A program made the translations under genes and the position numbers. Under the pieces are notes generated by a model that was given only the letters and a program-made list of their open reading frames with translations, searched no databases and had not been told where the DNA came from. Of a stretch of DNA of 55,731 bases, positions 8,132-42,798 are shown piece by piece (within the stretch, counting starts at the first letter, position 1; every line of letters starts with the position of its first letter). Source of the DNA: Candidatus Caccovivens sp. (GTDB lineage: Bacteria > Bacillota > Clostridia > Christensenellales > UBA1242); assembly GCA_051888935.1 (NCBI GenBank), contig JBJFCL010000019.1, positions 1-55,731 on the forward strand, written 5' to 3'.

Positions 8132-8530
8132 TTAGAAATGGAGGAGTGTTCTAATTGCTTTTCCAGTTGTTTTTGGTGCGTCCTCAACAATTGGTTTAAA
8201 CACATCAAATGCACCAAGAATCATTGGCAAGAATGTGTTGAAGAACAAAATCAAAACGATGACAACAACAATTGAAATTACAATGTTGATGAGACGCTTT
8301 TTGTTTTCTTCTCTTTGTTCTGCACTGTCTGCACGTGCCATTTTGATTCCAACATAAAGTGCATAAATTCCGCCAGCAGCACCAACAAGTGCCAACAACA
8401 CCCAAAGAACAGTTGAAAGTGTATTCATTAAGCCTGGCAACCAATTTTCAAAACCTGTTCCACTTAAATCTTTCAAAAGATCATTCCAAGATGTAATTAC
8501 CTCATTCATTAAAGAAGTTAAAAGATTCAT
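8132..8530 (-). CDS. small two-TM membrane protein, function unknown
   Basis: ATG at 8530 follows GGAGGAAA. Two hydrophobic helices are separated by the charged loop KMARADSAEQREENKKR. That layout is reminiscent of pilin-like/VirB2-like small proteins but is not diagnostic. Confidence 0.6.
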   Translation of the reverse strand: MNLLTSLMNEVITSWNDLLKDLSGTGFENWLPGLMNTLSTVLWVLLALVGAAGGIYALYVGIKMARADSAEQREENKKRLINIVISIVVVIVLILFFNTFLPMILGAFDVFKPIVEDAPKTTGKAIRTLLHF

Positions 8531-8757
8531 TTTCGTTTCCTCCAATAATTTAAAATTATTGTTCTCAAAAGTTGAGAAGAATATTCTCTCTTTTGATTAC
8601 AAACAAATAATAACATATGCAAAAAAAAATTCCAAACGATTTTGACAAAAAAATATAAAAAATTTAAAAAATATTTTTTGTTCGATTTTTTATTGGAATT
8701 TTTTTATTAAATTAAGCAATTTATTGCCCTTGAAAATGGAATTTTAAATTGTTTTAA

Positions 8758-8943: not shown

Positions 8944-9030
8944 AATTCCCTCCTTTTCAACAAGAAAATGCAAAATAAGTCCAAAAGCAAAAATTTTTTC
9001 TTTTGACTTTTCTTCTTTTGTTTGGGTAGA

Positions 9031-9077
9031 ATTGAAATATAAATTGTTACTTTATTGTATATGACACAATATTTCAA
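9031..9077. promoter_or_regulatory. inverted repeat in the divergent promoter region, candidate ArsR operator
   Basis: TTGAAATAT (9031-9039) and ATATTTCAA (9069-9077) are exact inverted copies, with ATTGT/ACAAT nested inside. Located 30 nt upstream of the arsR-family ATG. Confidence 0.3.
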
Positions 9078-9107
9078 AGTGTTCAAAAATTTAAAAGGTA
9101 GGAAAAT

Positions 9108-9443
9108 ATGAATAAATTGTTGAAGCTTACAGAACGCAATAAATATGAAATACAAGATTTGCTTCCAGATGAGGCGTGTACAAACAAATTGGCACTTTAT
9201 TTTCAAAACTTTTCCGACCAAACACGAATAAAAATTTTGTCGGCACTTTCAATTCGTGATTTATGTGTCAATGATCTTTCCAAACTTTTAGGAATAAATC
9301 AAACGACTATTTCACATCAATTAAAGACTTTGAAAGATCAAAATATTGTGGAATATAGGCGTGACGGCAAGATTTTGATTTATCGCATAAAGTCTCCGAG
9401 TATCAATGAGATGATGCTTTATGCCGTGAAGGTAATAAGTTAG
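9108..9443 (+). CDS. ArsR/SmtB family transcriptional regulator
   Basis: QTRIKILSAL....LCVNDLSKLLGINQTTISHQLKTLKDQNIV is the winged-HTH signature. Confidence 0.9.
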   Translation: MNKLLKLTERNKYEIQDLLPDEACTNKLALYFQNFSDQTRIKILSALSIRDLCVNDLSKLLGINQTTISHQLKTLKDQNIVEYRRDGKILIYRIKSPSINEMMLYAVKVIS

Positions 9444-9447
9444 CGGA

Positions 9448-9991
9448 GCAACCTGCGTTTTTGCTCATTTTTGCCACAGTGTGTCAAAAAGTATCGCGTT
9501 GATGCTTGGTTGCTCCGCGTATTCGCGCCAAACGAAAATCGCACTCCGCAAAAAGAATTTGCTATGTTGGCGATTTTGCGCGACTTAAAGAGGTGACATC
9601 GAAATGTTCCATTAGGCAGGGGTTGTGGAAACAAACGATATTGGACTTATGATGGGTGTGGGGTGGCTACGCAACCTGCGCTGTTGCTCATTTTTGCCAC
9701 AGTGTGTCAAAAAGTATCGCGTTGATGCTTGGTTGCTCCGCGTATTCGCGCCAAACGAAAATCGCACTTCGCAAAAAGAATTTGCTATGTTGGCGATTTT
9801 GCGCGACTTAAAGAGGTGGCATCGAAATGTTCCATTAGGCAGTGGTTGTGGGAACAAACGATATTGGACTTATGATGGGCGTGGGGTGGCTACGCAACCT
9901 GCGCTTTTGCTCATTTTTGCCACAGTGTGTCAAAAAGTATCGCGTTGATGTTTGGTTACTCCGCGTATTCGCGCCAAACGAAAATCGCACT
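9448..9991. repeat. tandem repeat, 223-bp unit x about 2.4 copies (units start at 9448, 9671 and 9894; the third is truncated after ~98 nt)
   Basis: Direct reading shows near-identical units with only a handful of substitutions. The array is visibly more G+C-rich than its flanks, starts 4 nt after the arsR-family stop, and ends 45 nt before the next ATG. Confidence 0.9.
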
Positions 9992-10036
9992 TTTTTAACT
10001 TGGGTGAAATTTATTTTTTTTGCACACAATAATCTT

Positions 10037-10246
10037 ATGTATTTTAATTATCATGCAAAAGTAAGAAAAATGATTGAAAATGGTAAGGCGACATATTATG
10101 AAATATTGAAAGAATATCATGGAATTTCGCCATGTATGATTATTTATTTTAGAGATTCCAAGCCGATGCCAATTCGACAGCATAAATTTGATGAATATCG
10201 ATTTTTACTTGCAAAATTTAATATAAAAGAAAAAACAGAGTTTTAA
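10037..10246 (+). CDS. small hypothetical protein (69 aa)
   Basis: MYFNYHAKVRKMIENGKATYYEILKEYHGISPCMIIYFRDSKPMPIRQHKFDEYRFLL... The upstream part of track ORF 9842-10246 is repeat DNA. No clear RBS. Confidence 0.5.
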   Translation: MYFNYHAKVRKMIENGKATYYEILKEYHGISPCMIIYFRDSKPMPIRQHKFDEYRFLLAKFNIKEKTEF

Positions 10247-10257
10247 TCTGTCTTTTT

Positions 10258-11298
10258 TTATTTTATATGTTCTTGTAAATCCTTAGATTTAAAATCTCTC
10301 TCAATTTTACAGACCATTTTATATAAACCAACCATATCAACTGGTTTAATTCTTTTGTCTTCGGTTTTCATTCCTCTATCTACACCATTTGCAATTGAAT
10401 AAAAGAACATTTGTGAAAAACAATCAAGGTTTTTGTCATTGGCATAACTTATGTCCCATTTATTGTCTCTACTAAGCAATTGGAATAGATGTTCATTTTC
10501 GTTTGTTGTATGTTCATTCAATAATTTTGTGGAAAAAATTTTCACTCTTTCAAAATCACATTTGCTTTTTGTTGCACCGTCCAGACTTTCTCCAAAAAGT
10601 ATACCTCTTTTTTCAAAATCAACCAAAATTCCATCTGGCTTTATTTTTAAATCTTTCATATAACTGTCAAACAAATCTCTGACCAAGCCTTCGTTTCTTT
10701 GCTTCAAATCAGAGATGGAATATGCTTGAACCGTTGGGCATTCAACCCGTATAATTTCTGGGGAATAACAAACAGAAAACAAGTGAGTTGCAACTTTGTA
10801 AGTATCGTCGTGTGTAAGACCTTTTTCTTCTAGTTGAAATCTCAATTCTTTAATAACTTTGCATATTTCTGTTTGACCATGACAAAAACCAACAAAGGTA
10901 ACTTTTGACATTTTCTTGCATATTTCGTCCAATGTTAAGATATTTTTGTTTTCATCAAGACATCTTGACAACAAATAATTCTTTACAAAAGTTTTTACCT
11001 CGTTTTTTGACATTTCACCAGTGTTTTGGCTAGTATAGTCAAATCCATAGTAAATTCCATAAATTGAAATGCGTTTGTAAAGTTCTTCTTTATCCGAAAA
11101 ACCAAGCAACAAACCATTCTCAACAATTTTGCATCCGCCATTTGCGTCCTTTGAAGTGATTCCTCCATTTCCCGGAAAATAAAAAACGGAAATTTCTCTG
11201 TCTCCATCAAAATTATCTTCAAGATCTCTGTTTTCACAATTAAAATATTGAGTATAGTCTCTTTTTATAATTCTTGTGCATTGCAACCTATCTTCCAT
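10258..11298 (-). CDS. hypothetical protein, possible alpha/beta-hydrolase-like fold with Cys nucleophile
   Basis: 346 aa with a GAGGGAAAA RBS. VFYFPGNGG and FVGFCHGQ (GxCxG elbow-like) are suggestive only. Confidence 0.65.
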   Translation of the reverse strand: MEDRLQCTRIIKRDYTQYFNCENRDLEDNFDGDREISVFYFPGNGGITSKDANGGCKIVENGLLLGFSDKEELYKRISIYGIYYGFDYTSQNTGEMSKNEVKTFVKNYLLSRCLDENKNILTLDEICKKMSKVTFVGFCHGQTEICKVIKELRFQLEEKGLTHDDTYKVATHLFSVCYSPEIIRVECPTVQAYSISDLKQRNEGLVRDLFDSYMKDLKIKPDGILVDFEKRGILFGESLDGATKSKCDFERVKIFSTKLLNEHTTNENEHLFQLLSRDNKWDISYANDKNLDCFSQMFFYSIANGVDRGMKTEDKRIKPVDMVGLYKMVCKIERDFKSKDLQEHIK

Positions 11299-11440
11299 TT
11301 TTCCCTCGATAAAAAAAGTATATCACTTTTTTATCACAAAAATCAATATACTTTTCTCGTTTTTTCAAAATCTTTCGCTCAAAGGCATATAAAAATAAAA
11401 CAAATAAAACTACCTTTTTGAAACTAATATAAAACACTTT

Positions 11441-12829
11441 TTAGTCTAAGTTTTTGTTTGTTTTTAGTTTGAGTTTACTTCCTTTATCAGTGTTTTTACA
11501 ATTTAATTTCATAACTTTTTGAGATTTTAGTTTTGAGGTTTCAGCAGGTAACTCAATTTGAGTTATAACTTTGTTGCGTTTGATTTGTTTCCATTTTGGC
11601 TTTGTAAGTGCTCCCCAAGTTATACCAAGTGCATAAATAATCATAAATCCTGGGAATAAAAGCATTGATGGAATAAGTTTTTTAATTGGAGTGTTAATTT
11701 TCTTTTTGTCTAGGAAATAAACCAAAAATGCTTGTGCAATAAACGGAATTAAGAATGCAAAAACTAAAATTATTCCGATAAATTTTGCCAAATCAATAAC
11801 ATATGCGAAGTTTCCGACACAACAGTTGTAAATGATGTCATAACAATAATATGCTGGCATCCAAATCACCAAAACCACTGCAATTGGAATAAATAAGAAG
11901 TTGAAGAACATGTCAAGATATTTGTATTTGAAGGTTGTAAAGAACTTCCAAAGGGATTTTAGACCATGTGTAAAAAACATCTTAAAAAGTCCATGTCCCA
12001 TACGCACATTTCGGTTGAATGTGTCTTTGATGGTGGTTGGTTCATCTTCATAAACAACTGCATCTGAGACATAAGTTGCATTGTTTCCGGCAAATAGTTC
12101 GTCCATTGAAAATTCTGCATCTTCGCTTACTCCAAGGGCTGTCCACTCGTAGTTTTTGCGTTTCATAATTTCGTCAGAGATCATCATTCCTGAGCCAACT
12201 AAGATTTGAGTGCAACCAATTCGGGAGCGAACTTGGCAGTTAAAACGACAATCTCGAATATACCATAGACCTGAAATTCCAGAGATGACATTTTGCGTAA
12301 GGTTTTTTGCACTGTTGTAACCTTTTGCCAGTTTTGCACCACTTGAAAGGGCGTCGTTCATGCATGAAACATAATTCTCATCAACATAATTGTCTGCATC
12401 AAAGCGGATAAAAGCGTCATAGTGCAAATCGTTTTGTTTGATATAATCAAAGAAATATTTGACAGGATAGGCAGCACGATGATGATTTGGGTCATTGTCT
12501 GTGTATTCCAAAACGGTAACTTGCTCTTTTCCAATTTTTCTACATACATCTGCCGTGTTGTCAGTGCTGTTGTTGACAATCACAAAAATATCAATAAGTT
12601 CTTTTGGATAATTTTGTTTTTGCAGACTGACAAGCACATCAACAATGGCATCTTCTTCATTGCGTGCAGGGATAAAAACAGCAAATTTGTGTTTTATTTC
12701 TGATTTTTTGAATTTTTTTGGTTTAACAAAAAACAAAAGTGTGTAAATAAATTGCTGAATAAATGCCACACTCGCAATTCCGAGCAAAACATAGTTTATC
12801 CAATAGAGGATAGAGTTAAAAATTTCCAT
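11441..12829 (-). CDS. membrane-bound family 2 glycosyltransferase (processive synthase-like)
   Basis: N-terminal TM segment, FAVFIPARNEEDAI, FDADNYVD (DxD-like), several C-terminal TM helices, and a Lys-rich tail. Confidence 0.85.
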   Translation of the reverse strand: MEIFNSILYWINYVLLGIASVAFIQQFIYTLLFFVKPKKFKKSEIKHKFAVFIPARNEEDAIVDVLVSLQKQNYPKELIDIFVIVNNSTDNTADVCRKIGKEQVTVLEYTDNDPNHHRAAYPVKYFFDYIKQNDLHYDAFIRFDADNYVDENYVSCMNDALSSGAKLAKGYNSAKNLTQNVISGISGLWYIRDCRFNCQVRSRIGCTQILVGSGMMISDEIMKRKNYEWTALGVSEDAEFSMDELFAGNNATYVSDAVVYEDEPTTIKDTFNRNVRMGHGLFKMFFTHGLKSLWKFFTTFKYKYLDMFFNFLFIPIAVVLVIWMPAYYCYDIIYNCCVGNFAYVIDLAKFIGIILVFAFLIPFIAQAFLVYFLDKKKINTPIKKLIPSMLLFPGFMIIYALGITWGALTKPKWKQIKRNKVITQIELPAETSKLKSQKVMKLNCKNTDKGSKLKLKTNKNLD

Positions 12830-12980
12830 AAAAATTGTTCCTATGCTTTATAGTAACATATTTATAAAAAAAATACTAGTATTTTCTTGACTTTTGTGTG
12901 TTAAAACCAATAATTCTTTTATAATTTGAGAATTTTGACCTTAATTTGACATTATTATTCACAATGCAACAAGGGTTTGC

Positions 12981-13009
12981 TTGACAAGAACTAGTTTTCA
13001 AAGTAAAAT
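12981..13009 (+). promoter_or_regulatory. consensus sigma-A promoter of queH
   Basis: TTGACA (12981-12986), a 17-nt spacer, then TAAAAT (13004-13009). The ATG follows 7 nt later with no SD. Confidence 0.5.
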
Positions 13010-13016
13010 AGCGTCT

Positions 13017-13562
13017 ATGGAAAAACTTTTGTTGCATTCTTGTTGCGGACCTTGTTCTACGGTGGTTATTGAGCGACTTAAAGAGCGCTTTGATGTGACC
13101 GTCTTTTATTTTAATCCAAATATTGAACCTTTTGAAGAATATGAAAGACGAAAAACTGAACAGAAAAAAGTTTGTGCATTCTTTGGTGTGAATTTTATTG
13201 ATTTTGATTATGATAATGCGGGCTGGACAAAATTTGTTGAAGGACTTGAAAACGAAAGAGAAGGTGGTGCGAGATGCACAAAGTGTTTCTTCTATCGCCT
13301 TGAAATGACAGCGAAATATGCAAAAGAGCATGGGTTTGACCTTTTTGCAACAACTCTCTCAGTGAGTCCTCACAAAAACACAAATGTTATCAATGAAGTC
13401 GGGGAAGCAATTTCAAAAAAATTGGAAATTCCATTTTTACCAGAAAGTTTTAAGAAAAAAGATGGATATTTGAGAAGCATAAATCTTTCAAAAGAACTGA
13501 ATCTTTATAGACAAGATTATTGCGGTTGCCATTTTGCAAGGAGGAATAGTGAGCAAGTTTGA
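13017..13562 (+). CDS. queH: epoxyqueuosine reductase QueH (DUF208)
   Basis: LLLHSCCGPCS N-terminal motif and C-terminal RQDYCGC. The track start TTG 12981 coincides with the -35 box, so ATG 13017 is preferred. Confidence 0.88.
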   Translation: MEKLLLHSCCGPCSTVVIERLKERFDVTVFYFNPNIEPFEEYERRKTEQKKVCAFFGVNFIDFDYDNAGWTKFVEGLENEREGGARCTKCFFYRLEMTAKYAKEHGFDLFATTLSVSPHKNTNVINEVGEAISKKLEIPFLPESFKKKDGYLRSINLSKELNLYRQDYCGCHFARRNSEQV

Positions 13563-22602: not shown

Positions 22603-23148
22603 TTATTCCTTTAGTTTACTAATTGTAATTTTTTCTCCATTTAGTTCAAGAGTAAATTTATCTTTATCTTTCAAGTTTAATTTTTCCCTTATATATTTTG
22701 GAATTTGTATAAGCCCATTTGAAAACATTGTTGTAGTTTTAGAATGTAAACTTTCTCTTGTAATATTTGGAATAAGTCCTTCATCTATCGACCTATAAAT
22801 TGTTGTCCTTGAAGGGCATTCAATTCCTTCTTTTTTACATTTTTCTTTTATTTGTATAATAGTCATATGTTCTTGTAAGATTAAGTTAGAAATTAGTTCC
22901 GCTAAATCTTTATTAATAATGAATTTTGGACTATTCCCTTTATTCTTATTTGTCTTCAACGATTTTTGAATTGAATATTCTGCATTATATTTTCCATTTA
23001 ACCAACCTCTTTTCAATTCTTTATATATTGTGCTATATTCAATTCCAACATTTGCTGCAATATTTTTTTTATCATAACCTTGTTCCAGTAATTGCTGAAT
23101 CTGTCTTTTTTGAAATTCTGTTATATTTTTTCTTCCAGTTTTTTTCAT
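22603..23148 (-). CDS. IS30-transposase-type double HTH fused to an AbrB/SpoVT (swapped-hairpin)-like C-terminal domain; no DDE domain
   Basis: The N-terminus is ITEFQKRQIQQLLEQGYDKKNIAANVGIEYSTIYKELKRG, then MTIIQIKEKCKKEGIECPSRTTIYRSI (IS30-like HTH pair). The C-terminus is LIQIPKYIREKLNLKDKDKFTLELNGEKITI. AGGAG RBS. Confidence 0.7.
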   Translation of the reverse strand: MKKTGRKNITEFQKRQIQQLLEQGYDKKNIAANVGIEYSTIYKELKRGWLNGKYNAEYSIQKSLKTNKNKGNSPKFIINKDLAELISNLILQEHMTIIQIKEKCKKEGIECPSRTTIYRSIDEGLIPNITRESLHSKTTTMFSNGLIQIPKYIREKLNLKDKDKFTLELNGEKITISKLKE

Positions 23149-23237
23149 AAATTACTCCTAAGTGAACTTTACCAATATATATTTATAAACTTTATAAAAA
23201 TTAAATTGAACATAGAATTTCTAAGTTTATATTTAAT

Positions 23238-25034
23238 TTATAAAGAATAAAAGTAATCTTTAACTTTATTAGCCATTAAGACTCGTCTTTGTGATAAAAA
23301 TTCTTCAAAGTTGTCGTAAGTCATATTCATAACACTTTCAGGAATTGCATTTTCTTTTAAGTTTTTAACCAAATCTTCTTTATTATCTATACATCCAAAT
23401 ACAGAATTTCCACCATTAACTTGTTGTTCAAGTTTATTAAAATATTCAATTGGTGGTAAATTACTAATTTGTATATTTATTTCTTGTTGCAAGTATACAT
23501 AATTTGCAATTTGATTATATTGTTGCATAGTATTTATTCCACTTTTAATTAGATAATCTTTTGGGAAAATGTGGTGTACATCTCCTCGCTGTTCAACTAA
23601 ATCTCTAACGGTCATACTCTTAGATAAAAATGCTCTATTTGATAATTTAATTTGACTAACAACAAACATTCGCCAATAAGGGCTGCTTGTAACAGAAGTG
23701 TTGAACTTATCCACCAATATTTTGTTCCAATATGCTTCAGATAATTCTGCTTCTTCTTGCATTTTAATATAAGAAGGTATATTTTCACAATTTGCTAATC
23801 TTTTAACATCATAGTCAAATCTTGATTCTGGAGAGCCAGAATATCTTTCTGTTAGAATGCTGTATACAACCCATCTTCTTACAGAATTTTCAATGATACT
23901 GGCATCATATCCTTTTTCTTTCATAAGCAAATACAAAATATATCCAAAATTTAGTACATTTTGTGACCTTATTAAATCTTCATTTATTATACCCGAAGAT
24001 TTTACAATCATTATGTATCTTTTATAATTTGTTTCATTTACAAAATCTTTAACTCCTGAATACAACTCGCTAAAACTTTTTTCAATTATTTCTTCTTTAA
24101 ACTCTCTTGTCTCAAAATCTCTACCAGACAAAAGGCTTACAAGGTCTTGCAATTTTCCTCTCTTAAATTTATAAGTAAAAGCAACTCTCAAAATGTCTAC
24201 ATATGATGGTTTATATAAATTATCAGTATATTTACTCGCCCAAGCAATTTTGCTAAACACCTCTTTGCTTGCAAATTCTTTATCATAATTTTTTATAGAA
24301 TCAAAATCTTGTGGAGTTTCAAGAAAATGAGAAAAATAATCAATGACTTTTCTTATATCATTCCCTTCGTATTCTTCATTTACACTTATTTTAGACAATG
24401 CAAAATCTGCTTGTGAAAGAGGAACGCCTTTTGAGTTTATTCTTACAAATATTTCAGTAACTGTATCAATATCTATTTTTGAAGATAATTCAATTCTACC
24501 AATTCCTAAGTTTAGAATTTCATTTAACTTATTTAATCTTTGATTTACTTCATTAGGAGTAATATTTGCAATCTTTGCATAATCAGTACAAAATTGAAAT
24601 GTATCTAAAACTTTATCATTCATTAAAGTTGCAATATCGCTTATCCATTCGTTACTCTTTTCGTGAGCAGGGGTAGAAACTGCAAATATCTCATTTTTAA
24701 TATTAAAAGCTATTTTTATTCTTTTTTTCTTATATTGAGAATTTAACACTTCATTCCCGCGAATTGCTGCTGATAATGCAGTTACTCTCTGTTGTCCATC
24801 AATAAGTATTTGTTTTCCCTCTGAAATTGTTCCATCTTTTAATTTTACATTTGGATTTTTCCAAGTAATTATATAGCCAACAGGATAACCTTTATATAAA
24901 GAATCAATTAAATCTCTAACTTTTGTTGCATCCCAAACAAAAGGTCTTTGAATTTCTGGGATAGCAATAACACCATCATCAACATAACTAAGTAAAGTGT
25001 TAATTTTAACACTATTAACTTCAAAACTTGCCAT
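23238..25034 (-). CDS. DUF262/DUF1524 protein (GmrSD-like type IV restriction / ParB-like NTPase plus His-Me nuclease)
   Basis: IPEIQRPFVWD and LIDGQQRVTAL (DUF262 motifs). C-terminal GDVHHIFPKDYL ... IANYVYLQQEINIQISN is HNH-like DUF1524. AAGGAG RBS. Confidence 0.88.
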   Translation of the reverse strand: MASFEVNSVKINTLLSYVDDGVIAIPEIQRPFVWDATKVRDLIDSLYKGYPVGYIITWKNPNVKLKDGTISEGKQILIDGQQRVTALSAAIRGNEVLNSQYKKKRIKIAFNIKNEIFAVSTPAHEKSNEWISDIATLMNDKVLDTFQFCTDYAKIANITPNEVNQRLNKLNEILNLGIGRIELSSKIDIDTVTEIFVRINSKGVPLSQADFALSKISVNEEYEGNDIRKVIDYFSHFLETPQDFDSIKNYDKEFASKEVFSKIAWASKYTDNLYKPSYVDILRVAFTYKFKRGKLQDLVSLLSGRDFETREFKEEIIEKSFSELYSGVKDFVNETNYKRYIMIVKSSGIINEDLIRSQNVLNFGYILYLLMKEKGYDASIIENSVRRWVVYSILTERYSGSPESRFDYDVKRLANCENIPSYIKMQEEAELSEAYWNKILVDKFNTSVTSSPYWRMFVVSQIKLSNRAFLSKSMTVRDLVEQRGDVHHIFPKDYLIKSGINTMQQYNQIANYVYLQQEINIQISNLPPIEYFNKLEQQVNGGNSVFGCIDNKEDLVKNLKENAIPESVMNMTYDNFEEFLSQRRVLMANKVKDYFYSL

Positions 25035-25136
25035 AAGAGACTCCTTATTTAAAAACTAATTATAATATAACATAAAATTAAGAATTTGTATAAATATATT
25101 TTAAAAAATTAAAATAATTTTTTAATTTGGCATTTA

Positions 25137-25232
25137 GGCGTGTGCTTGGTTATACAAGTGGTGAGCTATCACCCCAAAAGTGCTATGCACTTTCGGGGAA
25201 CCCCGATATGCTCCACCAACCAAGCACACGCC
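25137..25232 (-). ncRNA. 96-nt G+C-rich rod-like hairpin (candidate structured RNA or replication-origin hairpin)
   Basis: A 15-bp outer stem, GGCGTGTGCTTGGTT/AACCAAGCACACGCC, encloses GGTGAGC/GCTC(C)ACC and a 12-bp inner stem. The single non-Watson-Crick position of the inner stem is A.C on the plus strand but G.U on the minus strand. Confidence 0.4.
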
Positions 25233-25306
25233 CTATCTTTAACTTTAATTAAAATGAAAATAAACTTAAGTATACAAATATTAACAAAAAATTAAATAAT
25301 GCTCTT

Positions 25307-25370
25307 TGCAAAACGAAAAGTGGGCTAAAAAGTGGACACGGCTAAAGCAATCGTGCTCCACTTTTTTCTT
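25307..25370. other. second nested hairpin carrying AAAGTG repeats
   Basis: AAAGTGGGC (25307-25315) pairs with GCCCACTTT (25362-25370). Inside it, AAAAAGTGGACACG pairs with CGTGCTCCACTTTTT. Confidence 0.4.
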
Positions 25371-25769
25371 CGCCCACTTTCTTTTTTTTGCACTATCCAT
25401 AATTTTCGTATAAAAATTTTCTTATTGACCTTTCATAAACAATAAAAAGTTTTGCTTTTGTTTTTGTTTTATTTGAGAATTACTTTTGATTTCGTTTGAG
25501 TTGAGTTTGTTGTATTCGATTGAAACGCTTGCTAACATAAAGAAGAATGTTATCAAACAATGTTGGAAAAGTGATTGCTGTGGGGCAAGCGATATCATTC
25601 TTTCACATTATTGTTTGTGATACATTTACAACAGCAATAAGAAAGACAACGCAAAAATGACAAGCCGAGATTTTCGCATAGAAACAGTGGTTGCATTTTA
25701 ATGGCGTAGGAAATTAAAAAGTTTCTCTATGCCTTTTTAATTGCAAAAAACTAAAAGGAGGCAACCACT

Positions 25770-25898
25770 ATGAAAATCGTTTTTACAAACGAATTCAATC
25801 CAAATGTTTTAGATTCTTCATTCTTCCAAACATTATTTAATCGCCTTGTAATATTGCAAGAACAAAAGGAAAGCGAAGATGCACTACCCAAAAGTTAA
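25770..25898 (+). CDS. 42-aa ORF upstream of and overlapping rep (below the ORF-track cutoff)
   Basis: ATG 25770 lies 8 nt after AAAGGAGG. Sequence: MKIVFTNEFNPNVLDSSFFQTLFNRLVILQEQKESEDALPKS. The stop at 25896-25898 overlaps the rep ATG (25879) out of frame. Confidence 0.35.
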   Translation: MKIVFTNEFNPNVLDSSFFQTLFNRLVILQEQKESEDALPKS

Positions 25899-26748
25899 AG
25901 TGTATTTTGATGGTGGTCATTACATTGGTATCCCACAAACACCACAAATTTGGAAGAAAAGAAAGAATAAAAAGAAACCTACAAATGACACAATGAAAGT
26001 AAGATTTGATGAACTTTATAAAGAAAATAGGGCTTTGAAGAATAAAGAGAAACAAGAAATAATTGTAAACAAATTAACAGCAGAATTTGAAAGCGAGGAA
26101 AAAGCAAGAGAGTTTGTAAAAAAGAATTTTGAAAGAAAACGAAGAAACGATATTGAACGCAGAAAAAGATTGTATAGAAAAGTTTATTTGCAAGAATGGA
26201 ATTATTTTTGCACATTTACTTATGATGATAAAAAACTAAATGAAACTGAATTTAGAGAAAAACTGACTAATTGTTTAAGACATTTGGCAAATCGCAATGG
26301 GTGGAAATATGTTGGTGTTTGGGAAAGAAGTCCATTGAACAACAGATTACATTTTCATTCTTTGGTGTATGCACCACAAATGGTTGGAATATTTGAAACG
26401 AAAACAGATTACAGCACAGAGAAACATAAAATGCAGACAACAAATCAAAACACATTTTTCTTGCAACGATTTGGCAGAAACGATTTTAAGATTATCAACG
26501 ATTTTGAATTAAATCAAGCAGTTAAATATTTGACAAAGTATATGGAAAAGAGTGGAGAGAAAATTGTCTATTCAAAGGGTTTGAAAACATATTTTGTAAG
26601 CGAAATTATAGAAAGCGATATTGTTTGCACAATTGGAAATGAGAATAGAAAGTTGTTATTGTTTGACGATTTTTATTGCATTGTAGATGATGAATGTATA
26701 GGCAAAGTTTGCCTAGAAGTTATACAAAAGATGCCAAAGTCGAATTGA
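25879..26748 (+). CDS. HUH-superfamily rolling-circle replication initiator / relaxase-like protein
   Basis: Three ordered motifs: FCTFTYD (motif I), RLHFHSLVY (HUH) and AVKYLTKYMEK (YxxxY catalytic tyrosines). Confidence 0.8.
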   Translation: MHYPKVKVYFDGGHYIGIPQTPQIWKKRKNKKKPTNDTMKVRFDELYKENRALKNKEKQEIIVNKLTAEFESEEKAREFVKKNFERKRRNDIERRKRLYRKVYLQEWNYFCTFTYDDKKLNETEFREKLTNCLRHLANRNGWKYVGVWERSPLNNRLHFHSLVYAPQMVGIFETKTDYSTEKHKMQTTNQNTFFLQRFGRNDFKIINDFELNQAVKYLTKYMEKSGEKIVYSKGLKTYFVSEIIESDIVCTIGNENRKLLLFDDFYCIVDDECIGKVCLEVIQKMPKSN

Positions 26749-26752
26749 TTTT

Positions 26753-26901
26753 GTCTTTTCGCCTACAGAGCGTAAACGAAACTACATTTGCTGTCAAGGG
26801 TAAAGTTCATTGACTTTGTCAACCCTTGACAGTAAATAAAAGAAATTTTGAAGAATTAAAATTTGAAAGCGGTTTCGTTTTTACGCCCCTTGTCGAAAGA
26901 C
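26753..26901. repeat. nested inverted repeats between rep and the recombinase gene
   Basis: Outer arms are GTCTTTTCG..GCGTAAACGAAAC and GTTTCGTTTTTACGC..CGAAAGAC. The inner repeat is a perfect 11-bp pair, CTGTCAAGGGT (26791-26801) and ACCCTTGACAG (26822-26832). Confidence 0.6.
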
Positions 26902-26932
26902 AAATAAAAAAATATATAAAAGGAGTTTAGAA

Positions 26933-28435
26933 ATGAAAAAAGCAGTTGTATACGCAAGATACTCTTGCGACAATCAAACAGAACAAAGTATTGAGGGACA
27001 ACTAAGAGTGTGCGAAGAATATGCAAAAAATAACGACATATTAATTTTGAACACTTACATTGACCGAGCAATGACAGGAACAAACGATTTGCGACCAGAT
27101 TTTCAAAGAATGTTGAAAGACAGCAAAAACAAACAATGGGACTATGTATTGGTCTATAAACTTGATAGATTTTCGAGAAATAAATATGAAAGTGTTTTGC
27201 ATAAAAAGACATTGAAAGAAAATGGTGTGAAAGTGATATCTGCAATGGAAAACATACCAGACACACCAGAGGGCATAATCTTAGAAAGTTTACTTGAAGG
27301 TATGAACCAATACTATTCAGCAGAACTTGCACAAAAGGTAAAAAGAGGTATGCACGAGACAAGATTAAAAGGTTATTTTCAAGGAGGCACATTATTGTAT
27401 GGATATAAACTTGACGGAAGAAAAATTGTTGTCGATGAAGAACAAGCTGAAATAGTAAGATATATCTATAAGCAATATTCACTTGGCATATTTGTCAAGA
27501 CAATAATAAAAACTTTAACTGAAAAAGGTGTTTTATATAAAGGAAAACCTTTGGCAAGAAACACAGTATATGGCATTCTAAAAAATGAAAAATATTCTGG
27601 AAAATATATGCACGAAGAAGAAATAGTTGACAATATGTATCCTCAAATCGTGCCAACTGAACTTTTTCAAAAGGTAAGAGATAAGATAAGCAAAAACAAG
27701 TATGGGAAAAAGAGTGTAAAAACAACATATCTTTTAAGAGGTAAATTAAAATGTGGTTATTGTGGATTGCCAATAATTGCAGAGAGTGGAACAACAAGGC
27801 ACGGCAAAACTATTCATTATTACAAATGCTCTGGAAGAAAAAATAAATTGAACAATTGCCAAAAAAGTGTAATTCAAAAAGAAATATTAGAAAAGTTTGT
27901 GTTAGACAATGTAATAAATCAACTCAAAAAGCAAGAGAATATGAATGCGATTGTAAAAGGATTGTTAGAAATTCAAGATAAAAGTTTAAATGAAAACAGA
28001 GAATTATCGATAATGCAAAAACAGAAAAAACAATTAGAGAATACACTCAACAACATTATGTCGGCTATTGAAAAAGGTGTTGTGACAAAGACAACGGCAA
28101 ACAGACTAAAAGAAGTTGAAAGCCAGCTTGAAGAATTAGAGAAAAAGATTTTGATCGAGAAGAACAAATTGTCAGTTAAAATACCAGAAAGTATAATAAG
28201 ACAATATTACAGCGTTATGTTAGAATTAGAACCTTTGCCTTTAATAAACAACCTAATAAAAGAAATCAAATTGTATGATGATAAAATTGAAGTGACTTTC
28301 AATAGTCCAATAAAAACAAGTCCTGACGAAAATCAGGGCTTTTTATTTTACTCAAAAACACATAAAATCTTATTTGTAAATCAAAACCAAAATATATGTG
28401 AAATGAGAGATATTGTGATTAAATTATTTGTATAG
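26933..28435 (+). CDS. large serine recombinase (integrase)
   Basis: VVYARYSCDNQTEQSIEGQ contains the catalytic Ser region; YKLDRFSRN is also present. Followed by a recombinase domain, Cys-rich zinc ribbon (CGYCG...YYKC) and coiled-coil. AAAGGAG RBS. Confidence 0.93.
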   Translation: MKKAVVYARYSCDNQTEQSIEGQLRVCEEYAKNNDILILNTYIDRAMTGTNDLRPDFQRMLKDSKNKQWDYVLVYKLDRFSRNKYESVLHKKTLKENGVKVISAMENIPDTPEGIILESLLEGMNQYYSAELAQKVKRGMHETRLKGYFQGGTLLYGYKLDGRKIVVDEEQAEIVRYIYKQYSLGIFVKTIIKTLTEKGVLYKGKPLARNTVYGILKNEKYSGKYMHEEEIVDNMYPQIVPTELFQKVRDKISKNKYGKKSVKTTYLLRGKLKCGYCGLPIIAESGTTRHGKTIHYYKCSGRKNKLNNCQKSVIQKEILEKFVLDNVINQLKKQENMNAIVKGLLEIQDKSLNENRELSIMQKQKKQLENTLNNIMSAIEKGVVTKTTANRLKEVESQLEELEKKILIEKNKLSVKIPESIIRQYYSVMLELEPLPLINNLIKEIKLYDDKIEVTFNSPIKTSPDENQGFLFYSKTHKILFVNQNQNICEMRDIVIKLFV

Positions 28436-28457
28436 TGCCTATTTATTCCACGGTGAA

Positions 28458-28573
28458 CTTGACATGAGCCTCTTGAATGGGAAATTTTTTGGCAAACAAG
28501 TCAAAGGAAGGAAGCAAAATGCTGTTAATCCTTTGCCTTGTTTAATTATGTACCCATTCCTTCTCATGTCAAG
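28458..28573. repeat. 116-nt extended imperfect hairpin between the recombinase gene and tRNA-Glu
   Basis: Paired segments are CTTGACATGAG/CTCATGTCAAG (11 bp), GAATGGG/CCCATTC, AAACAAG/CTTGTTT and CAAAGGA/TCCTTTG. Confidence 0.6.
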
Positions 28574-28667
28574 CACCTTTCGCGGCATAAACCGGCACTC
28601 AAATGGAATGAAAAAAGAAAACCTAGCTCTTTCCCCTAAATATAGGGGGTTCGAATTAGGTTTTGAT

Positions 28668-28742
28668 TGGTGACCCCGACGGGATTCGAACCCATGATAC
28701 CGCCGTGAAAGGGCGGTGTCTTAACCGCTTGACCACGGGGCC
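28668..28742 (-). tRNA. tRNA-Glu (anticodon UUC), CCA encoded
   Basis: Reverse complement is GGCCCCGTGGTCAAGCGGTTAAGACACCGCCCTTTCACGGCGGTATCATGGGTTCGAATCCCGTCGGGGTCACCA. It folds as a cloverleaf with anticodon loop CTTTCAC. Confidence 0.95.
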
Positions 28743-41889: not shown

Positions 41890-42798
41890 ATGGCAAACAA
41901 AAAACCACTGACAACAAAAAGTAAAATAATTCGTTCAAGCATTGTCATTGCAGTTATTATTGCAGTGTTGGTTTTGGCGTATTTTATTCTTGTTTGGACT
42001 GGTGCGTGGGAATATATCAATTCCGTGGACAAAATTAGGGAACTGATTTTATCTGCTGGTTTTTGGGGAAGATTGGCGTTTGTTTTTATTCAATTTTTGC
42101 AAGTGACATTTTTGCCAATTCCATCTACAATTTCCACGCTGGCAGGGGTGCTTATTTATGGACCGTTGGAAGCGGCACTGTTGAGTCTTGCTGGCATCAT
42201 ACTTGGCAGTGTGTTGGCTTTTGCACTTGGACGAACTTTTGGTCGCAAGTTGGTGGTTTTTATGGTTGGTGAAGAATCTTGCAAGAAATGGGAAAAATTC
42301 TTATCCAATGCCAAGTACTCCTTTTTTATCATGATGGTTTTGCCGATGTTTCCTGATGATGTTCTCTGTCTCGTGGCAGGACTTACTGATATGTCATGGG
42401 CATTCTTTGTCATAACCAACTTGGTTGCACGACCAATAGGTGTTTTTATGACTTGTTACCTCGGTAGTGGAGCGCTTATTCCTTATCATGGTTGGGGACT
42501 TGTGGCTTGGGCATTTATTGTGGTTATAGTGGCGGTTTTGCTGTTCCTTTCTTTCAAATATCGCGACAATATTGAAAATTTTTTACAGACAAAATTTAAA
42601 AGCAAAGCACATAAAATGAAAGAAAACCTGTCAAATACTGATGCATCAACAGAACAAGTTGCAGAAAAACAAGAAGATAACAAAGAAAAAGATGCTCCTA
42701 TAACAAAGAAAAACAATGAAAAAGATGCTCCTATAACAAAGAAAAACAATGAAAAAGATGTTAAAACAAACAAAAACACTCAAAAGCCTACAAAATAA
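41890..42798 (+). CDS. TVP38/TMEM64 (DedA/SNARE-associated) family membrane protein
   Basis: FLQVTFLPIPSTISTLAGVLIYG...LGRTFGRKLV. The C-terminal tail has a duplicated KDAPITKKNNE. Confidence 0.85.
   Translation: MANKKPLTTKSKIIRSSIVIAVIIAVLVLAYFILVWTGAWEYINSVDKIRELILSAGFWGRLAFVFIQFLQVTFLPIPSTISTLAGVLIYGPLEAALLSLAGIILGSVLAFALGRTFGRKLVVFMVGEESCKKWEKFLSNAKYSFFIMMVLPMFPDDVLCLVAGLTDMSWAFFVITNLVARPIGVFMTCYLGSGALIPYHGWGLVAWAFIVVIVAVLLFLSFKYRDNIENFLQTKFKSKAHKMKENLSNTDASTEQVAEKQEDNKEKDAPITKKNNEKDAPITKKNNEKDVKTNKNTQKPTK
42685..42761 (+). repeat. 33-bp perfect tandem repeat (2.3 copies) inside the TVP38 gene tail
   Basis: GAAAAAGATGCTCCTATAACAAAGAAAAACAAT at 42685-42717 and 42718-42750, then a partial third copy. 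Confidence 0.9.

Follow-up and report, generated by a model that had tools for sequence, protein, structure and literature searches.

The array described here occupies positions 9448 to 9991/9992 of the window, by which we mean the whole 55,731-nt stretch of DNA that was analyzed. It starts 4 nt downstream of the TAG stop codon of an arsR gene and is followed by a small open reading frame (ORF) and then by queH. The region is organized as follows.

9108-9443, plus strand: ArsR/SmtB-family regulator gene, in conserved synteny, with the element immediately behind its stop codon
9448-9670: copy 1 of the repeated unit (Tandem Repeats Finder and copy alignment)
9671-9893: copy 2 (Tandem Repeats Finder and copy alignment)
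9894-9991: copy 3, truncated (Tandem Repeats Finder and copy alignment)
9584-9670, with a second copy at 9807-9893, no strand: tail of the unit (unit positions 137-223), no homolog found
9992-13017, no strand: lineage-specific block from the array to queH, not in any syntenic relative
10037-10246, plus strand: small ORF of 69 aa, beginning 45 nt past the array end
10258-11298, minus strand: 346-aa ORF in the lineage-specific block
11441-12829, minus strand: GT2 glycosyltransferase in the lineage-specific block
13018: start codon of queH, which has its own promoter

A first-pass annotation of this DNA had described a G+C-rich array with a 223-nt period and a truncated third copy, located between an ArsR regulator and a small ORF, and all of this held. 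Tandem Repeats Finder reported a 223-bp unit present 2.4 times in tandem, with 96% matches, 0 indels, and a score of 1027. In the three-copy alignment, the units differed at 9 to 10 substitutions, predominantly transitions, and copy 3 stopped past unit position 98-99, giving the layout A(98)-B(125)-A-B-A. The G+C content of the array is 47.2%, compared to 34.2% for the window and 25 to 33% for the immediate flanks. A 26-mer of the unit had three occurrences in the window, whereas 100 shuffles produced none, and blastn and nhmmer detected no further copies or fragments of the unit outside the array in the 55.7-kb window. Both outer junctions are also present in independent short-read contigs from two samples and must therefore be real; contig L001 stops in copy 1, contigs L002 and L003 begin in copy 3, and these contigs thus break within the repeat. 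The interior copy number comes from a single contig, the one analyzed here.

Both neighbors of the array are conserved genes. ArsR has hundreds of relatives in Clostridia assemblies, at 70 to 85% identity. The 69-aa product of the small ORF (MYFNYHAKVR...PMPIRQHKFDEY...) is not assigned to any Pfam or NCBIfam family; it is 60 to 75% identical to proteins of four other assemblies and is a real conserved protein. In one relative (not in this window), its homolog lies directly behind spoIVA, with no repeat ahead of it. The idea that the 346-aa gene travels together with the small ORF was discarded, as this gene is not homologous to the one behind the small ORF in L004.

The repeat behind arsR and at stable-RNA genes

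The arsR region was compared with twelve syntenic loci. Their common gene order is L31, PrmC, RF-1, a pilin-like gene (minus strand), ArsR, QueH, and signal peptidase, followed by HU, rubrerythrin (minus strand), a 256- to 260-aa protein, and an MFS transporter, and the window carries the same set. The distance between arsR and queH is 49 to 225 nt in the relatives versus 3.57 kb in the window. Spacers of 183 to 225 nt (L009-L014, L057, and L060) are filled with sequence homologous to unit positions 1 to ~140; each of those in the related clade contains one copy of this element, whose distance from the arsR stop codon is as in the window. The short spacers (L015-L017, L058, L059, and L061) lack it. 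Since a single copy occupies the same position in the related clade, the element would already have been behind arsR in an ancestor. Identity values for RF-1 and ArsR (82%) place the window as an outgroup to the two clades, filled and empty alike, and the pattern of presence and absence therefore fits one old insertion, then one loss, which would be the simplest history at the arsR site.

The unit is composite. Positions 1 to ~140 belong to a repeat family, and positions 137 to 223 form a tail for which no homologs were found in the collections searched. An origin of this tail from the queH promoter and start codon, hinted at by MAFFT, was rejected, as the local alignment scored no better than shuffles; likewise, a 13-nt identity (GCGACTTAAAGAG) between the unit and the queH coding region (13069-13085) is at chance level (E 0.12). 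To the right of the array lies a block of 3.4 kb, at whose left border the truncated copy 3 ends. Because the small-ORF homolog is found elsewhere behind spoIVA and the arsR-queH spacers of relatives are short, this block is lineage specific.

The same region offered two side observations. The type IV secretion pilin-like gene (8132-8545, minus strand; PF18895, NCBIfam Mbov_0395 family) stands alone between prfA and arsR and is kept at that position in all syntenic relatives, with no further conjugation genes nearby. Upstream of arsR, positions 8990 to 9107 contain a strongly conserved motif (TTCTTTTGACTTTTT.TCTTTTGTTTGGG...), which is also present in L009, L012, L015, L058, L060, and L061 and includes a promoter-like TTGACT-18-TAGAAT; the long arsR 5' leader harbors an inverted repeat with paired differences between clades (AGCACAAC...GTTGATGCT versus CACCACAT...ATGTGGTG). 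The apical palindrome of the element had been considered as an ArsR operator, and this was dropped because relatives do not conserve the similar string that the window has upstream of arsR.

Exact 20- to 21-mers of the unit had no hit in viral, genome, or metagenome contigs, and two units compared by blastn with plasmids and phages gave no match. A core pattern was then built from the arsR-spacer alignments and used in two collection scans, which returned three copies in L027, three in L031, and one each in L028, L048, and L054. Contigs L027 and L031 belong to the same genome bin (rabbit-gut Clostridia), which carries at least six copies in two 8-kb stretches. The best identity of family copies to the window is 91% across 64 nt. 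Positions 1 to ~140 recur both behind arsR and at tRNA and rRNA genes of other Clostridia.

The stable-RNA copies, from four other Clostridia assemblies, either adjoin tRNA genes or lie upstream of 16S rRNA, and every one of them shares the strand of the adjacent tRNA or 16S rRNA gene, which is equivalent to the minus strand of the window. In L031, three copies follow a sigma-A-type promoter (TTGTCA-17-TAGAAT), and two of them form a tandem (106-nt unit, 2.1 times). In L027, copies are located within the spacers of a tRNA-Gly, tRNA-Cys, and tRNA-Leu cluster, and one of them stops 5 nt before tRNA-Leu(UAA); in both contigs, the element ends 5 to 6 nt from the mature 5' end of a tRNA-Leu. In L054, the element is found between the 16S rRNA gene and a promoter matching the consensus at 11/12 positions, so that in L031 and L054 it is located downstream of strong sigma-A-type promoters.

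Some details of these loci were noted in passing. A tRNA-Leu 5' half, which extends as far as the anticodon loop and differs at two positions in the acceptor stem, is present in L031 (5690-5856, plus strand), directly behind an element copy and 30 nt upstream of a complete tRNA-Leu(CAA). The 16S leader of L054 (480-860, minus strand) measures ~520 nt from promoter to 16S start; past the element, it contains a boxA-like string recognized by eye (AACCTTGACAATTAAATAG), which the tRNA-adjacent copies lack, and an A/T-rich hairpin of 16 bp. In rRNA antitermination leaders (boxB-boxA-boxC), a boxA consensus stands beside a hairpin and is the binding site of NusB/NusE.

In L027 and in L028/L048, one copy lies between a complete tRNA gene with its terminator and a duplicate of the last 21 to 30 nt of this tRNA, again with a terminator. 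This arrangement was found at three places:

L027, 2950-3260, minus strand
L028, 6337-6654, plus strand
L048, 7000-7340, minus strand

At the other edge of the insert, there is a 12- to 14-nt inverted piece of the same tRNA, namely, the segment just 5' of the duplicated 3' part. The repeats flanking the element in L027 and L028 comprise 55 to 66 nt of tRNA 3' end plus terminator, and the unit tail of the window contains no recognizable counterpart of these fragments. The 8-kb surroundings of the copies in L027, L031, and L048 contain housekeeping genes and no integrase or transposase genes. The idea that the element is an arm of an integrated island was abandoned, given the lack of an integrase near it in the 8-kb loci.

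Rfam 15 gave no gathering-score hit over the array (at an E value of ≤10, two chance snoRNA hits), in line with the failure of the first-pass annotation to match the unit to a known RNA family, and it had no match to the elements in L031 and L027 either. No tRNA-like cloverleaf was detected over the array by ARAGORN or with Rfam RF00005; the only tRNA that ARAGORN found in the window is tRNA-Glu (28668-28742), which also accounts for the sole Rfam gathering-score match (28671-28742). Our literature search found no description of such an element. The family is a previously undescribed structured, dispersed, noncoding repeat.

A rod with a covarying closing helix

The repeat of ~140 nt consists of two modules, an upstream hairpin A (AAAA-stem-UUUU) and a rod of 66 to 76 nt. 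The rod is made of a 6-bp closing helix (P1), short helices P2 and P3, and an apical hairpin, with conserved single-stranded motifs on either side. In the window, these parts were located with the covariance model of the rod (R1), alignments, and folds:

9443-9518, minus strand: rod domain of copy 1 (P1-P2-P3 and apical hairpin), R1 84.9 bits
9666-9741, minus strand: rod domain of copy 2, R1 87 bits, P1 formed by 9671-9676 with 9731-9736
9889-9964, minus strand: rod domain of copy 3, complete, R1 83.5 bits
9468-9490, again at 9691-9713 and 9914-9936, minus strand: apical hairpin HP1 (alignments and folds)
9535-9577 in copy 1, again at 9758-9800, minus strand: upstream hairpin A (AAAATCGC...GCGATTTT; folds)

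P1 of copy 3 includes one U.G pair on the minus strand, and this copy keeps one arm of hairpin A (9981-9988) because the array ends there. On the minus strand, HP1 reads UUUUUGACAC-ACU-GUGGCAAAAA; its base is identical in sequence in every family member, and the apical hairpin has the invariant sequence UUUUUGAC-loop-GUCAAAAA throughout the family. The rod structure is seen in an alignment of thirteen copies, all placed in the tRNA-sense orientation, in which P1 has seven variants:

L027a: GCAAAC/GUUUGC
L028: ACAAAC/GUUUGU
L054: GACAAC/GUUGUC
Window: GCAACC/GGUUGC
L031c: GCAAUC/GAUUGC
L027c: GCAGUC/GAUUGC
arsR-linked clade: AAAAAC/GUUUUU

Pairing in P1 is 98.7%, and 4 of its 6 pairs vary on both sides in a compensatory manner, in a sample of about seven independent sequence variants that are few and partly related. 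When the 3' partner was shifted by 1 to 3 columns as a control, pairing dropped to 42 to 54%, with little covariation. RNAalifold, unprompted, returned the same P1 together with P2 and P3. In a search of 397 kb, model R1 recovered these copies, all at ≥52 bits, and no other sequence, and counts on a model-based alignment of 15 copies, which is biased by construction to the model's own structure, agreed on P1. Folds of single sequences gave the rod in the window minus strand, where it is the minimum-energy fold of copy 2, and in L027a, as well as in L054 (z -4.9), L031c (z -3.2), and L060 (z -3.4). Since P1 covaries, its sequence is not what is kept.

Hairpin A likewise shows paired changes in its stem relative to L027c and L031c (AAAACCGC/GCGGTTTT), L028, and L054: above the AAAA...UUUU pairing, the stems are CG/CG, GU/AC, UG/CA, and CCGC/GCGG, and UCGC/GCGA in the window. 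Behind arsR, P1 starts 0 to 4 nt past the stop codon and is lengthened to 10 to 11 bp in L060 and in copy 1 of the window, where the helix of 11 bp (9443-9453 with 9508-9518) extends up to the stop codon. That P1 is kept, and even lengthened, in the arsR-linked copies argues against these being mere relics.

The first-pass annotation had proposed a structured noncoding RNA (ncRNA), possibly read from the minus strand, with helices picked by eye. The sequence strings it named are all present, including the 11-bp complement, and its GCAACC/GGTTGC helix is P1, with compensatory changes in homologs from other genomes. Its other pairings did not survive comparison: CGCG-TATT-CGCG is present only in this window, the pairing conserved at the place of CGCAAAA/TTTTGCG is instead AAAATCGC/GCGATTTT, and GCCAC/GTGGC is not conserved, GCCAC being within the apical hairpin and GTGGC in the part without homologs. 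The unit contains a conserved structured element, but its 223 nt do not make up a single RNA: conservation is confined to positions 1 to ~140, and neither strand of the full-length unit folds with unusual stability (z -0.9 and -0.5).

With respect to the strand, the minus strand is indeed the one that corresponds to the tRNA/rRNA sense, but the argument from wobble pairs on which this had been based fails, with 5 to 6 G.U versus 5 A.C events family-wide and a minus-strand A.C in each of copies 1 and 3. Watson-Crick covariation is symmetric and cannot separate the strands. With the wobble counts balanced, only the orientation relative to stable-RNA genes favors the minus strand. The rod region folds at -26.2 kcal/mol (z -2.75) on the plus strand versus -18.3 kcal/mol on the minus strand; the folding-energy asymmetry of the two hairpins was discarded as a strand indicator, being inconsistent from copy to copy. 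The element runs antisense to the genes on either side of it, both in the window and in the related clade. A promoter scan detected no minus-strand promoter-like sites over or beside the array or in L009 and L060, and there are no minus-strand terminator-like sites within or upstream of the array units.

Origin of the array and role of the family

The array is best read as the local tandem amplification of one dispersed hairpin-repeat copy together with ~85 bp of adjoining unrelated sequence. In the lineage of the window, unequal recombination or replication slippage would have raised the ancestral element behind arsR to three copies, the third being truncated where the lineage-specific block begins. 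As the units are 96% identical, the amplification must be recent, and it provides no evidence of selection on copy number; we take it to have been neutral. The family itself would represent an RNA hairpin in the precursor transcripts of stable RNAs, acting in their processing, protection, or read-through, and the arsR-linked array would be a displaced copy that serves no dedicated function. We give about even chances to this account as a whole, that is, an amplified resident repeat of a family active in stable-RNA precursors. For the family, a role as RNA in such precursors is the most likely function judging from sequence, because of the location of the copies, their orientation, the covariation, and their abutment on tRNA 5' ends. 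A bolder version is possible and offered tentatively: the rod and the upstream hairpin may define a new class of cis-acting RNA in tRNA and rRNA precursors of uncultured gut Clostridia, serving processing, protection, or antitermination and able to be copied, with the array as a copy in the course of amplification.

Among known elements, the family appears by analogy to be nearest in its working to dispersed modular hairpin repeats such as BOX and REP/BIME and in its position to the spacer RNAs of tRNA operons. BOX of Streptococcus pneumoniae and REP/BIME of enterobacteria are dispersed, modular, hairpin-forming intergenic repeats. Like them, the family consists of short noncoding hairpin modules with several copies per genome, which combine variably (hairpin A is found in two forms beside the same rod), are in part arranged in tandem, and reside in transcribed intergenic regions. 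We know of no sequence relation to BOX or REP/BIME. In contrast to these repeats, the family has so far been found only at stable-RNA operons and in one arsR spacer, is always cooriented with the stable-RNA gene, and combines a covarying closing helix with an invariant apical hairpin. The spacer-derived RNA 3'ETS-leuZ originates from the glyW-cysT-leuZ operon of Escherichia coli. The family resembles it in being located in internal or external transcribed spacers of tRNA operons, and the Gly-Cys-Leu operon of L027 even has the same gene order, but there is no sequence similarity.

The serious rival to an RNA role is that the family acts at the DNA level, as a mobile or recombinogenic hairpin (REP-, BOX-, or MITE-like or a single-stranded recombination site) whose folded strand would be recognized by a transposase or recombinase encoded elsewhere, with clusters arising as by-products. 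The two copies placed between duplicated tRNA 3' ends point to DNA-level insertion or recombination, as the arrangements in L027 and L028/L048 show the element between a tRNA with terminator and a duplicated tRNA 3' end. The arsR-queH spacer is filled in some relatives and empty in others, two 8-kb stretches of a single genome bin contain six copies or more, clusters occur both in L031 (106-nt unit, 2.1 times) and in the window (223-nt unit, 2.4 times), and the apical hairpin with its flanking motifs is nearly invariant across genomes, as protein recognition sites are. However, with the window as outgroup, presence and absence at arsR fit one old insertion and one loss, and the constant orientation relative to stable-RNA genes would have to be explained separately. 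The family also lacked matches in plasmids, phages, and viral contigs. On balance, we consider the mobile hairpin doubtful.

MITEs are recognized by conserved terminal inverted repeats and short target-site duplications flanking each copy. Of terminal inverted repeats, only P1 is present, and paired substitutions have changed its sequence between copies; comparison of the window with filled and empty relatives revealed no target-site duplications at the arsR site. With regard to integrative elements inserted in tRNA genes, L027 and L028/L048 have the duplicated tRNA 3' segments, but their 8-kb loci have no integrase. Integron attC sites, IS200/IS605, and REP hairpins are recombination sites recognized as folded single strands, and the family resembles them in size (60 to 140 nt) and in a conserved shape with varied stem sequence. 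The attC end boxes (RYYYAAC and GTTRRRY) are not kept, however, as P1 reads GCAACC/GGTTGC, GCAATC/GATTGC, GACAAC/GTTGTC, or AAAAAC/GTTTTT; since GATTGC and GTTGTC are among the variants, the invariant GTT of attC is absent. Furthermore, and again unlike attC, the loop-proximal part is conserved in sequence, and no integron integrase or TnpA gene is located near the copies in the 8-kb loci of L027, L031, and L048, where transposases and integrases in general are missing. REP/REPIN elements are 20- to 40-nt palindromes with a conserved 5' tetranucleotide, arranged as inverted pairs in genomes with a RAYT gene, whereas the family has a longer rod in direct tandem, and no REP-associated transposase (RAYT) partner was identified on the contigs analyzed.

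The first-pass annotation had suggested small RNA genes, two or three of which would be encoded on the minus strand of the array. The minus strand is the sense strand of the family in its tRNA and rRNA contexts, the rod is complete in all three copies, and the G+C content exceeds that of the surroundings. Nevertheless, this is unlikely, since the minus strand has no promoter- or terminator-like sites in or upstream of the units, the amplification is recent, with copies 96% identical, related genomes carry one copy or none, and the 87-nt tail needed to complete each RNA is conserved nowhere. The LhrC1-5 RNAs of Listeria and the ToxI repeats of type III toxin-antitoxin systems are tandem arrays of small RNAs or antitoxins, the latter with repeats of 34 to 36 nt in tandem followed by a terminator and the toxin gene. 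The array shares with both the head-to-tail order of structured noncoding units. It differs from both in that its units lack a promoter or terminator of their own and that amplification was recent and confined to this lineage, and from ToxI in its unit length (223 versus 36 nt) and in that no toxin gene follows, the downstream ORF encoding the conserved 69-aa protein found elsewhere behind spoIVA. A dispersed or MITE-like repeat, which the annotation had named as its other option, is the better description of the array than tandem ncRNA genes.

The element might instead serve the plus strand, as a structure at the 3' end of the arsR mRNA that protects this end or causes weak termination. Owing to the symmetry of Watson-Crick covariation, a plus-strand RNA would fold equally well, and the plus-strand value for the rod region (-26.2 kcal/mol, z -2.75) and the retention of the fold in the related clade despite sequence drift are compatible with such a use; the lengthening of P1 to 10 to 11 bp right behind the arsR stop codon (0 to 4 nt) in the window and L060 leaves room for it. 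Against it, the helix is not followed by a T run, and the terminator scan found a single weak site in the array, a 5-bp stem in copy 2, and none in L009 and L060. Moreover, relatives with empty spacers manage without the element, and the oppositely oriented copies at tRNA and rRNA genes would be left unexplained. We therefore regard an arsR mRNA structure as improbable.

Finally, a gene fragment, a coding repeat, or an assembly artifact is very hard to credit, and the coding reading is effectively refuted: although copy 2 has one plus-strand frame that stays open over an entire unit, the 223-nt period is not divisible by 3 and stops occur in all frames across the array, the repeat-borne ORFs matched nothing in Pfam or NCBIfam, the 134-aa and 107-aa ORFs running through the repeat retrieved from 5.8 billion protein clusters only homologs of the real small ORF and the window's own ORF, and both junctions are present in independent assemblies.

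If the family is a functional RNA, as we favor, it would represent a new signal common to tRNA and rRNA precursors in poorly studied gut Clostridia, for which a fold supported by covariation and a covariance model applicable to larger databases are already available. Should it instead be a mobile hairpin at the DNA level, it would be a new dispersed repeat, one that reshapes tRNA loci through duplicated tRNA 3' ends and terminators and also breaks short-read assemblies, which is relevant to metagenome-derived genomes. Either way, the tandem array is a recent local duplication of an ordinary type and not a new kind of gene.

Two other features of the window were noted. Positions 22603 to 28742 look like a small integrated element beside tRNA-Glu (28668-28742, minus strand), with an HTH protein, a GmrSD-type restriction protein (23238-25034, minus strand), a Rep ORF2/G2P-like replication protein (25879-26748), and a large serine recombinase (26933-28435). 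A 33-bp tandem repeat (42679-42785; 3.3 copies, 89% matches) lies within the ORF at 41890-42798 and, its period being a multiple of 3, is probably a coding repeat.
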